Below the pieces are notes generated by a model. It was not told the DNA's origin. It saw only the letters and a program-made list of their open reading frames with translations, and searched no databases. Positions 37,541 to 40,577 of a stretch of DNA of 64,000 nt are shown one piece after another. Position numbers and translations under genes: made by a program. This DNA is from a virus (Duplodnaviria; Caudoviricetes): IMG/VR virus record IMGVR_UViG_3300025000_000057; one strand, written 5' to 3'. The stretch's first letter is position 1. Every line of letters starts with the position of its first letter.

Positions 37541-37708
37541 TTGCTTAATATTATATGTAGTTGCGGACAATCGGTTCTGATAGATAAATCTATAGGTATG
37601 GAAGAACTTATGCATGTAGGCTTTGAGATCAGAACTACGGGTAATGACGATATCGAATTACGTTGTCGTTCCTGTGATGAAAAGATCACCTTTAAGGAAA
37701 GTGAGTAA
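37541..37708 (+). CDS. 55-aa Zn-ribbon protein (not in ORF track)
   Basis: GAGGGTG RBS, TTG start; CSCG...CRSC. Confidence 0.65.
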   Translation: MLNIICSCGQSVLIDKSIGMEELMHVGFEIRTTGNDDIELRCRSCDEKITFKESE

Positions 37709-37768
37709 GATAATCTGTCTGAAGTAGGTTCAAATCTTTATCGTTCGACTAAAGACTAATAAGATTAT

Positions 37769-38049
37769 TACAGAATAGCAATCGTGGTGGTGAACACGAG
37801 ACGCGAAAAGACAAGGTGAGCGTCGGTGAATAAGGAGATACGTGACGCTCCGAATATTTGCTGGCCTAATGGGTGCCCTGAAATAACAGGGCCGATGACA
37901 GCTCTACCTATCTGTGAATTGACACAGTGATACCGTCATATGGTGCCAGGTCTAACTGTATGATTTGTGTGTAACCAGGGAATTAAATCCAGGTAACTGT
38001 ATGTAGCCTAGCCCATGACCAAGTAAGTTCGAATCTTACCTATTCTGTA
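37769..38049 (+). ncRNA. tRNA-framed 281-nt structured RNA
   Basis: 10-bp tacagaatag/ctattctgta; D-like arm tcgtg-gtggtgaa-cacga; T arm gtaag-TTCGAAT-cttac; 223-nt helical interior. Confidence 0.7.
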
Positions 38050-38077
38050 TTTAAACTAATAGATAGGAGTTGTTTTA

Positions 38078-38443
38078 ATGCCAGAAGATGCATCAGAAGA
38101 TAAATCCCTTATCAGTATGTCTGTAAGCGATTTTACCAAGAAGGTTACGCCCGTAAATGTTAAAGACGGTAACGAATTATTCCTCTTTAAGTGCGCTGGC
38201 TGCGGCGGTCTACATTTCCGTCATGCCGGGTATGTAGAGATGGTAATGCCCTATATGAGGGCGGATAAAACCAAGAATGTCTCAACCGACTCTTACAGTG
38301 TTAAAGTATGCGTAGCCTGCCGCAAGTGCTATATCTGGGTAAATGATCAGGTCTATGATATTACAGAACACATTGACTTGAAAGCTTGGGAGAAGCTTGA
38401 GAAAGAAGCTCATAAAGCCGTAGGCCCGGGTGGAAATTGCTAA
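38078..38443 (+). CDS. Zn-ribbon protein
   Basis: CAGCGG...CVACRKC; AGGAG RBS. Confidence 0.75.
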   Translation: MPEDASEDKSLISMSVSDFTKKVTPVNVKDGNELFLFKCAGCGGLHFRHAGYVEMVMPYMRADKTKNVSTDSYSVKVCVACRKCYIWVNDQVYDITEHIDLKAWEKLEKEAHKAVGPGGNC

Positions 38444-38471
38444 ACTTAGCCGCCGTAACTGGCGGTCACAT

Positions 38472-38554
38472 CAGGGGTTCTCCTAACGGTAAGGAAGTGT
38501 CGCGCCTAGGCTCCGACGACGCCATAGCGGGTTCAATTCCCGCACCCTTGACCA
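38472..38554 (+). tRNA. Atypical tRNA with 16-nt anticodon loop; amino acid unassigned
   Basis: Acceptor CAGGGGT/ACCCTTG, A73, encoded CCA; D arm TCCT-AACGGTA-AGGA; GTGTC/GACGC stem; T arm GCGGG-TTCAATT-CCCGC. Confidence 0.8.
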
Positions 38555-38567
38555 CTTACAAAGTTAT

Positions 38568-38601
38568 AATTACGCCTGGTTAAAATAAACCAGGCGTAAT
38601 T
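38568..38601. repeat. Perfect 14-bp inverted repeat
   Basis: aattacgcctggtt-aaaata-aaccaggcgtaatt. Confidence 0.8.
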
Positions 38602-38664
38602 AATAAGTAAAAGGAAATACAGTAATAAAAGACAATACTACAGTAAGAAGTAAATGTTAATATC

Positions 38665-38790
38665 TTCAGGGTAGTGGGGTTGTGCGATCATCCGGATCCC
38701 GCCCGGAACGGTAATATCGGCCATTTAAGCCCGAGGCGGTAAAGTTTAGATTAGTCAGTAGCCAGGTGAGGGAATCTGGCCTACCCTGAA
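38665..38790 (+). ncRNA. 126-nt structured RNA with tRNA-like top half
   Basis: ttcagggtag/ctaccctgaa stacked on gccag-gtgagggaat-ctggc; internal tccgg/ccgga and tcgg/ccga. Confidence 0.55.
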
Positions 38791-39182
38791 TATTTATATA
38801 TCACATAAGAAAGGAGATGAAATAAGAGTGCATCTATTACACGATAGTACGGTTGTATGTTGCTTGCTAGATAAGGTATTCTGCGGAATGCTGGTATGCA
38901 TATATATAGACTTACCATACGCATACCTTTCTCTGGTTAAGCTACAACAGGGCGCCCCGCAACTATCACCGGAGATACACGGATTTCCAACCGGTTTTAC
39001 TTAAGGGTTTTGCTTAGTTCCCGAATATTTATATTTTAGCTCATTACCTGAGGGGTTGGGCCGGGCCGATATTGCTGTGACCGGCCCTCGGTTCATTTAT
39101 TGATTAATAAGAAAGGAGGTGAATACTAATTACTATATTAATAGCCTTTTGCCGGTTTTCTGGTTATGCGTGTAATTGTTAT

Positions 39183-39485
39183 GTGTATGAAGGATCTTCT
39201 AAGCATATTGCTGTTTTAGGATATGGACATGCAATTGCTTTATCAGGGAATTCTCTTGCCTTAGAACGTGCTTTTATATTAGGACGTATAGGTAAGGATT
39301 TTACTGAAGCGTTTACAACTTATTGTGATGATTGGCGAGATGTAGTAAGTCGCGTAATGTATCCCATAAAGTTTATACTTAAATCATTGGCGCTTTTAAT
39401 ATCGCCAAATTGTTTATTGCCGGTGATTACCGGTACCATTTCGTTATTCCGGCGGCACTGTACTTTTGTTAGCGGTTACATCTAG
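39183..39485 (+). CDS. Possible hypothetical protein (frame opens at ATA/ATT 39123-39129)
   Basis: Strong AAAGGAGGTG at about 39112; coding status uncertain. Confidence 0.4.
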   Translation: MYEGSSKHIAVLGYGHAIALSGNSLALERAFILGRIGKDFTEAFTTYCDDWRDVVSRVMYPIKFILKSLALLISPNCLLPVITGTISLFRRHCTFVSGYI

Positions 39486-39706
39486 CCCTTCGGGGCTAAT
39501 ACTTATCTACCTCCAATATTTATCTTACCAAAATTGCTTCTAACTGATTAAGAGAGGATGACGCCTAATGAAAGATGGTTTATACTCTAGAACCTTTGAT
39601 AAATAATATCTTGGCTGCCGGGCGCTGCCCGCGAAAGTTTCGATACGGGTAGCAGCATTTAATTTATATGATATAGTTTACTTCAGAAAGGAGGTGTTAT
39701 ATAAAA

Positions 39707-39880
39707 ATGGAATATGAATATATTTACGATTATATATACGATTTACCTTATCCGGAAGTTGAGCCATTATGGCGTAATGTTGAGTTCTTCTTAATTCCGG
39801 CAAGACTCGTATACCCGTTATTTACCATAGTCTCCGGGCCTCAGACTATTGGTGATATTCCGTATACCGATTATGGCTAA
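39707..39880 (+). CDS. 57-aa Tyr/Pro-rich protein (not in ORF track)
   Basis: AAAGGAGGTG RBS; MEYEYIYDYIYDLPYPEVEPLW...YTDYG*. Confidence 0.7.
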   Translation: MEYEYIYDYIYDLPYPEVEPLWRNVEFFLIPARLVYPLFTIVSGPQTIGDIPYTDYG

Positions 39881-39947
39881 CGTCGCCCGGCCGGAGGGCT
39901 TATATCCGGTAACTAACGACCAATATTACGTATTTTCAACAAACACA

Positions 39948-39974
39948 GACCGGGTGTGCAGAACCCGGTCTTTT
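39948..39974 (+). terminator. Terminator-like hairpin just before tmRNA
   Basis: gaccgggt-gtgcaga-acccggtc-tttt. Confidence 0.6.
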
Positions 39975-39976
39975 AT

Positions 39977-40558
39977 GGGCTCGACTGGTTTCGATGTGTT
40001 AGAGATGGTAAACTTGCCCGGACAGGTGGCGACTTACGCCAACAATATAAATGCCAAAACACCTTTACAAGCTGCTGCTTAGTCTTAGGACTGAATAGAT
40101 AAACAGCCTCAAAACATCGGAGCAAAACTCAGCTAACCGATTGAGAGTTTAAGAATTGAGTAATCCCCGGGAATGGGGTAGGAAATCTACATTCCTGTGG
40201 CTTCTGTGTAAGCCTACATCGGGCCGGGCCCGTGAATCGAAATGTGTAGAGCAAATCCTCGCAAATGTGAAGAGGTGGGAGGCGACAGTCCTGCGACTCG
40301 TAGAAGTCTAATGCTGCTAGTTCGGCATGAAGCGAAGAATGAAGGGGTATTACTGGTCATACTTGGAGCCGATAAGCTAGACCAGTTGGTGGAGGACCAT
40401 GTCCAGGATAGTTGGCAATTACTATCCACGGTGACCAACAGCCGGGGCGGTTCCGCCGTCCAGGAATGCGGCGAATGACTTACGTAATAAGTCTATTCCG
40501 GGTAGACGGTTAAGAGTAGCTAATACAGACGAGGGTTCGATTCCCTCCGAGTCCACCA
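39977..40558 (+). ncRNA. ssrA: tmRNA (unusually long, 582 nt)
   Basis: 5' GGGCTCGACTGGTTTCGA; acceptor GGGCTCG/CGAGTCC-A-CCA with G3:U70; T arm gaggg-ttcgatt-ccctc; tag frame after ATAAAT: GCC AAA ACA CCT TTA CAA GCT GCT GCT TAG = AKTPLQAAA*. Confidence 0.93.
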
Positions 40559-40577
40559 ATATTTACCAACTAAGTAG

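Follow-up and report, generated by a model that had tools for sequence, protein, structure and literature searches.

Do phage RNAs that are built like transfer RNAs (tRNAs) and cannot decode act together as one machine, or is each the product of a gene of its own? The question is raised by a 2.9-kb RNA island in the Caudoviricetes record IMGVR_UViG_3300025000_000057, of which we analyzed a stretch of 64,000 nucleotides (nt), called the window. A sequence-only reading of the window had placed four aberrant RNAs in the island, had seen no ordinary decoding tRNA there, and had proposed that the RNAs and three small open reading frames (ORFs; 37541, 38078, and 39707) form one coordinated anti-defence module. 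We found the RNA island to be real and its tRNA-like members to be unable to decode. A transfer-messenger RNA (tmRNA), an 83-nt tRNA body (RNA B), and a 281-nt tRNA-framed RNA (RNA D) are real, while the fourth proposed RNA, a 126-nt mimic (element C), is unsupported. The three ORFs exist. We favor, at a probability of roughly 0.55, the reading that the island is a cluster of independent stable-RNA genes on tRNA frames and not one machine.

RNA D and its family

RNA D was found to consist of the arms of a tRNA and a large insert, with the following parts.

37769-38049, + strand: RNA D, 281 nt, a conserved family supported by covariation
37769-37778 / 38040-38049, + strand: acceptor (closing) helix, 5 covarying pairs
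37782-37799, + strand: D arm, invariant
37800-37804 / 37820-37824, + strand: anticodon-like stem of 5 base pairs (bp), 4 of the 5 pairs covarying
37825-37862, + strand: hairpin domain
37869-37872 / 38012-38016, + strand: helix closing the cargo domain of ~150 nt
38023-38039, + strand: T arm, 3 covarying pairs

In the frame, the acceptor is 7 bp long, the D stem has 5 bp and a loop containing GG, and the T loop reads UUCGAAU. The anticodon-like loop is A-rich and not conserved, with 15 nt in the window and 15-18 nt across the family. The hairpin and cargo domains together make up an insert of ~190 nt at the variable-arm position. The closing helix, D arm, and T arm had been recognized correctly in the sequence-only reading. 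Its further claim, that the extra domain replaces the anticodon arm, is contradicted by the covarying 5-bp stem, which is kept, and by the position of the cargo at the variable arm.

The family comprises four distinct sequences, namely the window copy, a strain variant (X3) of 37761-38054 seen at low depth when metagenome contigs were aligned to the island, L021:647-955, and L057:213-498. The L021 homologue was found directly downstream of a homologue of the 37541 ORF, and the L057 homologue was the one true homologue among 38 metagenome matches to the invariant D-arm sequence. The X3 variant differs by 24 substitutions, most of them transitions, and by insertions and deletions of 7 bases in total that break the frame, which together rule out a coding role for D. 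Both ends of the RNA (37761-37790 and 37996-38054) are invariant in X3. Five helices carry compensatory double changes between the window copy and X3, against 0.96 +/- 1.04 when the same substitutions were placed at random (p ~0.003).

We then folded the alignment of the window, L021, and L057 sequences, excluding X3, with RNAalifold. Both sides had changed with the pair kept in 21 of the 63 predicted pairs, compared with 8.6 +/- 2.7 such pairs in column shuffles, and the alignment energy was -62.5 against -17.9 +/- 3.2. The compensatory pairs were located in the acceptor, the T arm, the anticodon-like stem, and the cargo-closing helix. Two internal hairpins (37875-37892 and 37911-37928) have near-identical AAUUGA loops in all four sequences. 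Another hairpin, at 37935-37964, differs wholly in sequence between homologues and keeps its pairing. RNA D is a conserved, covariation-supported, and uncatalogued RNA family with a complete tRNA frame and a large cargo in the variable arm.

No family in Rfam 15 matched any D homologue beyond the T arm, so that at least one tRNA-like member of the island belongs to a family without an Rfam 15 match. An exact-pattern scan of metagenomes with the 3' end of D gave 0 matches. In viral contigs, the D core ACACAGTGATACCGTC gave 3 chance matches, all within coding sequence, and the D-arm pattern gave 0. The AAGGAG of D was considered as a Shine-Dalgarno "sponge" and rejected because its GGAG pairs with CUCC and covaries to GGGG/CCCC in L021. 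A compensatory pair 37824/37844 suggested by X3 was also discarded; L021 and L057 instead pair 37820-37824 with 37800-37804. Just past the stop codon of the 37541 ORF, which encodes a zinc-ribbon-like protein, lies a degenerate T-arm-like stretch (37709-37760, TAGGTTCAAATCT; remnant at 37720-37750). The 3' half of the tRNA-like RNA in the same slot of L021 aligns with this stretch, which resembles a decayed copy.

RNA B and an oversized tmRNA

The other two supported RNAs, and a hairpin next to one of them, are located as follows.

38472-38554, + strand: RNA B, 83 nt, with a cloverleaf as its minimum-free-energy fold
39947-39971, strand unassigned: GC-rich hairpin and subsequent U tract, which stop immediately 5' of the tmRNA
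39977-40558, + strand: tmRNA, 582 nt, Rfam RF00023
40531-40558, + strand: T arm and 3' strand of the acceptor of the tmRNA, with ACCA

The acceptor of RNA B is 7 bp long, contains G3:U70, and continues into A73 and an encoded CCA; the remaining parts include a 4-bp D stem with a GG loop, a 4-nt variable loop, and the T loop UUCAAUU. The nucleotides for tertiary contacts (U8, A14, D-loop GG, and T-loop UUCAA), checked by eye, are present. The anticodon arm can be drawn either as 5 bp with a 16-nt loop or as 8 bp with a bulge and a 9-nt loop, and the enlarged loop contains the 8-nt palindrome GCCUAGGC. Neither B nor D shows the combination of a 7-nt loop, U33, purine 37, and acceptance by a tRNA finder that marks a decoding tRNA. 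B was not called by ARAGORN and did not match the Rfam tRNA model even at E 10, and its loop indicates that it is unable to decode. Over the whole 64 kb, ARAGORN reported 0 tRNA genes and 0 tmRNAs, and Rfam at gathering thresholds reported 0 tRNA matches, with the tmRNA as the single RNA. The earlier statement that no ordinary decoding tRNA is present therefore stands for the 64-kb window of what is a 219-kb genome.

A relative of B, L021:532-617 (86 nt), was found between the zinc-ribbon ORF and the D-type RNA. Its acceptor equals that of B at 5 of 7 pairs, the remaining two pairs covary, and A73 is common to both. The 18-nt loop of this relative starts with another perfect palindrome of 8 nt, GGGAUCCC, which differs from that of B. 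That unlike palindromes occupy the same site in the two RNAs suggests that self-complementarity is selected, as it might be for loop-loop dimerisation, and our estimate of the probability that both B-type loops would carry a palindrome by chance is ~0.002. A 9-mer, CTAGGCTCC, occurs both in the enlarged loop of B (38502-38510) and in an extra hairpin of the L021 copy of D (L021 859-867); it may be a shared motif or chance.

The tmRNA matched RF00023 over model positions 1-374 with a score of 59.2 bits (gathering score 47, E 1e-20). Its acceptor, GGGCUCG / CGAGUCC, contains G3:U70 and is followed by A73 and CCA, and its T arm is canonical (GAGGG UUCGAUU CCCUC). The internal tag frame at 40053-40082 (GCC AAA ACA CCU UUA CAA GCU GCU GCU UAG) encodes AKTPLQAAA and a stop, has an alanine resume codon, and is aligned with the resume region of the model; helix 5 and later pseudoknots are present. 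The RNA thus shares with SsrA (RF00023) a score above gathering, a tRNA-Ala-like domain including the T loop, and a tag ending in AAA. It departs from the usual size and four pseudoknots of a one-piece tmRNA, and is a size variant within the core definition. The 582 nt compare with 374 positions in the model and with 375-388 nt in three other viral tmRNAs that share its 3' 31-mer. The extra segment of 250 nt (40113-40362) is unaligned and lies inside the PK2 helix CCUCAA / UUGGAG. A simple scan of this segment, run with no control, returned several candidate pseudoknots. The tmRNA, which ARAGORN misses, is real and bona fide, and is oversized through an expanded pseudoknot region. Phage-borne tmRNAs are known from Bacillus phage G and Bxz1-type mycobacteriophages (PMC4131195), and GenBank annotations place tmRNA in crAss-like and Cellulophaga phages. 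The 582-nt form widens the known size range of tmRNAs and shows where the fold tolerates expansion.

The hairpin at 39947-39971 may be either a leader hairpin or a terminator-like element. Two metagenome-assembled genomes (MAGs), a groundwater Levyibacteriota MAG and a gammaproteobacterial MAG (L019 830-857 and L020 3297-3324), have tRNA-Ala(CGC) genes whose 3' ends match the last 28 nt of the tmRNA (40531-40558) exactly. An attempt to assign a host from the 3' end was given up: the 31-mer occurred in 0 genomes and the 28-mer only in these tRNA-Ala genes, which are uninformative on the host. A 3' k-mer of the tmRNA is also common to several other contigs of the source metagenome, and the assembly breaks there.

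Independent RNA genes or one module

The members of the island were found in other combinations elsewhere. In contig L057, a D-type RNA stands alone between protein genes, without the zinc-ribbon ORF. In L021, the D-type RNA occurs with the palindrome-loop relative of B and with a third tRNA-framed RNA (~1418-1589), which folds into an 8-bp acceptor, a D arm (GTATGGTGGGAACATAC) resembling that of the D family, a 6-bp stem that closes a loop of 21 nt, a cargo of ~85 nt, and a canonical T arm. No tmRNA was found near D in L021 (in the contig, within 1.8 kb) or in L057. This modularity supports independent genes, and the co-conservation across relatives that was predicted for the island fails in part.

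In a related huge phage (L004/L005/L007), the 38078 protein is 55% identical, ThyX lies upstream, and an RNA island occupies the same place. The following RNA-like elements were located in L004.

8103-8254: tRNA-like element
9986-10442: candidate 457-nt tmRNA-like RNA
10449-10640: tRNA-like element
10662-10739: tRNA-like element with a 13-nt loop ending UUUAUGA
12116-12266: tRNA-like element

The aberrant tRNA-likes of L004 include a GNRA tetraloop, a 4-nt loop, the 13-nt loop, and a 4-base "anticodon"; one tRNA body there carries ~125 nt of inserted sequence. The candidate tmRNA-like RNA has the tag frame ANATPMKNAA and G3:U70 and is not confirmed by Rfam. The type of island is conserved in this clade, with members that differ and that also occur separately elsewhere. 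Two further stretches of L004 have no counterpart in the window: ~600 nt at 7180-7760 that are C-poor with GGTA-type repeats, and ~five tandem units at 8800-9130 that end GTTGAAA(A)C and resemble H-type pseudoknots.

The small ORFs that had been proposed as partners of the RNAs differ in their distribution.

37541-37708, + strand: zinc-ribbon-like ORF, 55 aa, with Cys6, Cys8, Cys42, and Cys45
38078-38443, + strand: Cys-rich phage protein, 121 aa, 28 homologues
39707-39880, + strand: Tyr-rich ORF, 57 aa, with a strong Shine-Dalgarno sequence

The 37541 ORF is probably a real small protein gene. Its homologue P0151 (55 aa, 55% identity), in L021 and L022, lies directly upstream of the homologous RNAs, which is a single case. 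The predicted model of the protein (pLDDT 79) has the zinc ribbons of the archaeal RNase P protein Rpp21 as its best PDB matches, at a non-significant E of 0.09. The 38078 protein has no Pfam or PHROG match. In six contexts outside the two huge phages, its gene is directly followed by protein genes and not by RNAs, so that by its distribution it is not an RNA partner. Its use as an anchor for finding related islands was likewise poor, most homologues lying among protein genes. The 39707 ORF matched only itself among 5.8 billion proteins and had no Pfam or PHROG match. The proposal that 38078 and 39707 are RNA partners is therefore not supported, the former being widespread without the RNAs and the latter an orphan, and only the zinc-ribbon ORF retains a place beside the RNAs.

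We propose that the RNAs of the island would follow a common design, in which a tRNA frame (an acceptor that stacks on a T arm, usually accompanied by a D arm) surrounds a non-decoding payload. The tmRNA is the best-understood RNA of this design. The frame would be recognized by tRNA-maturation and tRNA-binding proteins of the host and would act as a handle for processing and stability, through the 5' cut by RNase P, 3' trimming, CCA repair, and nuclease resistance. Such a handle would let the RNAs be excised from long + strand transcripts of the gene block. The function of each RNA would be carried by its own cargo or loop: together with SmpB of the host, the tmRNA would mark stalled products with a tag specified by the phage, dimers of B may form through the palindromic loop, and D may be a protein scaffold, an idea that stems from its two near-identical AAUUGA-loop hairpins.

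Several points weigh against this proposal. The frame could serve otherwise, by binding EF-Tu, synthetases, or defence nucleases. Two distant huge phages have an RNA island beside the 38078 gene and ThyX, and the RNAs of the island could act together. The terminator-like hairpin immediately before the tmRNA complicates simple co-transcription. RNA D and element C have no encoded CCA, and the G3:U70 of B is absent from its L021 relative, which has C3-G70 and ends UCA; alanine identity or charging is thus not a trait of the B family. Groundwater and sediment metagenome runs contain DNA of the island, there is no RNA run among them, and transcription, ends, and processing are only inferred.

A single counter-defence or translation-control module, as proposed in the sequence-only reading, would have the tRNA look-alikes titrate tRNA-targeting nucleases and the tmRNA counter stalling defences, with the small proteins as RNA partners. 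It would fit the presence of a tmRNA-like RNA and aberrant tRNA-likes in the same neighbourhood of two huge phages that are ~55% identical in protein, the synteny of the zinc-ribbon ORF with D and the B-like RNA in L021, and the faint resemblance of the 37541 model to the RNA-binding zinc ribbon Rpp21. The solitary D of L057, the lack of a tmRNA near D in L021 and L057, and the distributions of 38078 and 39707 speak against it. PrrC-type nucleases read the anticodon loop, and the enlarged loops of the island imitate no real anticodon loop, which argues against anticodon-loop decoys of such nucleases. A Pfam scan of 27 window proteins revealed no gene for RNA repair, SmpB, or a synthetase. Such a module appears to be a weak reading that the distribution does not support, and we regard it as quite unlikely. 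The same holds, taken as one joint claim, for the broader picture in which the tRNA-shaped RNAs themselves act in controlling translation or in counter-defence. In that picture, dimerising B-type RNAs and a protein-loaded D scaffold (possibly with the zinc-ribbon protein) would occupy, through their tRNA shape, tRNA-binding sites on host factors, the ribosome, or tRNA-directed defence nucleases, and would form with the enlarged tmRNA a toolkit that rewires how the host handles tRNAs and stalled ribosomes. A narrower alternative, which we consider unlikely, is that B and D specifically form ribonucleoproteins or dimers. B would pair with itself via its 8-nt palindrome, the twin AAUUGA hairpins of D would bind a protein in two copies, for which the adjacent zinc-ribbon protein is a candidate, and the tRNA shape would dock on tRNA-binding sites of the translation apparatus. 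The perfect palindromes of differing sequence in B and its relative, the pair of near-identical loops conserved in all four D sequences, and the synteny of the zinc-ribbon ORF are in its favor; against it, the B-type sequences number only two, the synteny is a single case, and D in L057 occurs without the zinc-ribbon ORF.

Two further explanations start from tRNA genes. If the elements were tRNA genes in decay, left over from a former cluster, functionless and with insertions in the anticodon region, one would expect remnants such as that at 37720-37750 upstream of D, which aligns to the 3' half of the B-like RNA of L021, as well as an unsupported element C and the failure of both tRNA finders to accept any element. 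The strong compensatory evolution of D across four sequences, the tertiary-contact nucleotides kept by B, and an acceptor of B that is common to a relative differing elsewhere are at odds with decay, and 2.9 kb of dead DNA would be unlikely to persist at the same place in two distant phages. We consider decay very unlikely. Least likely in our view is that these are true tRNA genes interrupted by group I or other introns, from which splicing would yield decoding tRNAs. Without its first 9 nt, the loop of B would read CUCCGAC, a canonical 7-nt loop with U33, anticodon CCG, and A37, and the 13-nt loop of L004:10662-10739 likewise ends UUUAUGA. No group I or other intron model matched at E up to 10, however, and inserts of 6-9 nt are far below known self-splicing introns. 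The loop of the L021 relative ends AACAAGG, where the same removal fails. In D, the cargo lies in the variable region, and removing one segment rebuilds no tRNA; there is no 3' anticodon-stem half upstream of the T arm, and the covarying anticodon-like arm is closed.

The closest published parallel to the island is in phage T4. Its rnaC and rnaD (species 1 and species 2) are stable non-decoding RNAs that end the T4 tRNA cluster; they have been known for fifty years without an assigned function. When folded here (z -4.6), rnaC was found to have a canonical T arm (CCGGG UUCGAAU CCCGG) adjoining the terminal helix, with folded inserts. These RNAs resemble those of the island in being non-decoding, tRNA-framed members of a phage RNA gene cluster, and D and B share the plan of rnaC, in which the terminal helix meets the T arm and a structured insert takes the place of a decoding loop. 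This is a likeness of plan only, and blastn against phage records found no sequence similarity between rnaC or rnaD and the island. In addition, D has twice the length, retains both a D arm and an anticodon-like arm, and carries its cargo at the variable-arm position, and there are no true tRNAs beside the RNAs in the window.

For a tmRNA of mycobacteriophage DS6A that consists of the tRNA-like domain (TLD) only, a role as a tmRNA inhibitor that titrates SmpB has been suggested (Hudson, Lau and Williams 2014, PMC4131195). Like B with its G3:U70, A73, and CCA, the DS6A tmRNA is a small phage RNA with a tRNA-Ala-like acceptor identity and no tag template, and SmpB titration is a possible analogy for B. 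RNA B differs in having a true D stem and an anticodon arm and is hence tRNA-like and not TLD-like, and its L021 relative is without G3:U70. The layout of D is the same as that of the engineered tRNA scaffold of Ponchon and Dardel, in which a foreign structured RNA inside a tRNA body is processed and stabilised by the cell (PMC3753655). D differs in being natural and conserved, and its cargo is at the variable-arm position and does not replace the anticodon arm; that its frame would serve processing is our inference. YrlA, a bacterial Y-RNA-like tRNA mimic bound by Rsr/Ro60 (PMC4201824), is another non-coding RNA with a tRNA-like module. We found no Rfam Y-RNA match in the island and no Ro/TROVE gene among the 27 Pfam-scanned proteins of the window. 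The ends of YrlA form a Ro-binding stem, unlike the acceptor of the RNAs described here.

These RNAs have consequences for annotation. The tools usually applied to phage tRNA annotation demand a normal anticodon loop, so that RNAs such as B and D go unseen, and neither ARAGORN nor the Rfam tRNA model reports either of them. RNA D is a concrete and testable natural "tRNA scaffold with cargo", without a match in Rfam 15 and obtained from different metagenomes. If the frame is a processing handle, it would explain how large phages make many stable RNAs from long transcripts, and if the RNAs bind tRNA-directed host factors, they would be a new class of viral effectors.

Other elements and gene neighbourhood

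Between B and the tmRNA, and just past the latter, we located element C, a further paired stretch, and four copies of the motif AATATTTAY.

38665-38790, + strand: element C, 126 nt, closed by CAGGGUAG/CUACCCUG, which abuts a hairpin
38789-38797, + strand: AATATTTAY copy 1, directly past the 3' end of C
39024-39032, + strand: AATATTTAY copy 2
39115-39523, + strand: stretch closed by GGAGGUG / CUACCUCC, ending with CCA and motif copy 3
39515-39523, + strand: AATATTTAY copy 3, past ...CUCCA
40558-40566, + strand: AATATTTAY copy 4, starting at the terminal A of the CCA of the tmRNA

In element C, the terminal helix and the abutting hairpin are present, and the hairpin loop is not a T loop. The folding energy is ordinary (z -1.06), and neither a homologue nor an Rfam match was found. 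The identification of C as a tRNA mimic is unsupported and unproven. Element C is followed by the island motif AATATTTAT. The stretch at 39115-39523, folded with its closing helix, has a z of -2.18 and encloses a 100-aa ORF (39183-39485) whose reality is doubtful; the stretch is possibly another RNA or a small gene. The motif AATATTTAY occurs 5 times in the 64 kb, which is about the number expected by chance, and 4 of the 5 are clustered within 1.8 kb of the island on the + strand, where each directly follows a known or putative RNA 3' end. The copies may be processing sites, promoters, or terminators, and they hint at two more RNAs with ends near 39023 and 39514. The motif is absent past the homologous RNAs in L021 and L057.

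No long ORFs appeared in the ORF-poor region 38560-39980 under alternative genetic codes. The ORFs 38828, 39183, and 40578 have no family match in Pfam or PHROGs and no counterpart in the related phage L007. The whole island had no blastn match among 50,697 phage records, and single elements gave T-arm-sized matches only. ThyX and the 949-aa helicase were tried as anchors for related islands and abandoned, returning as close relatives only the same genome.

That genome is GCA_902725955.1 (CACUYJ010000001.1, 219,483 bp), which is 99.7% identical to the window over 20.4 kb. The source of the window is a huge groundwater phage. The only differences between the window and the NCBI record in the matched region are two short in-frame segments missing from the latter, 38390-38416 (27 nt, inside ORF 38078) and 40612-40644 (33 nt, inside ORF 40578), which may reflect strain variation or a difference in curation. 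The full-length 121-aa form of the 38078 protein is encoded both in the window and in the ENA assembly of the same sample.

The genes flanking the island, all on the + strand, belong to nucleotide metabolism and replication and include ThyX, dCMP deaminase, thymidylate kinase, HU, the 949-aa helicase, a 5'-3' exonuclease, and DNA ligase. Elsewhere in the window are genes for a DarT1-associated NADAR-like domain, a DUF488 domain, and a MoxR-type AAA ATPase adjoining a VWA protein (19982-21655, 25421-26251, and 58872-62156), which are possibly conflict-related.

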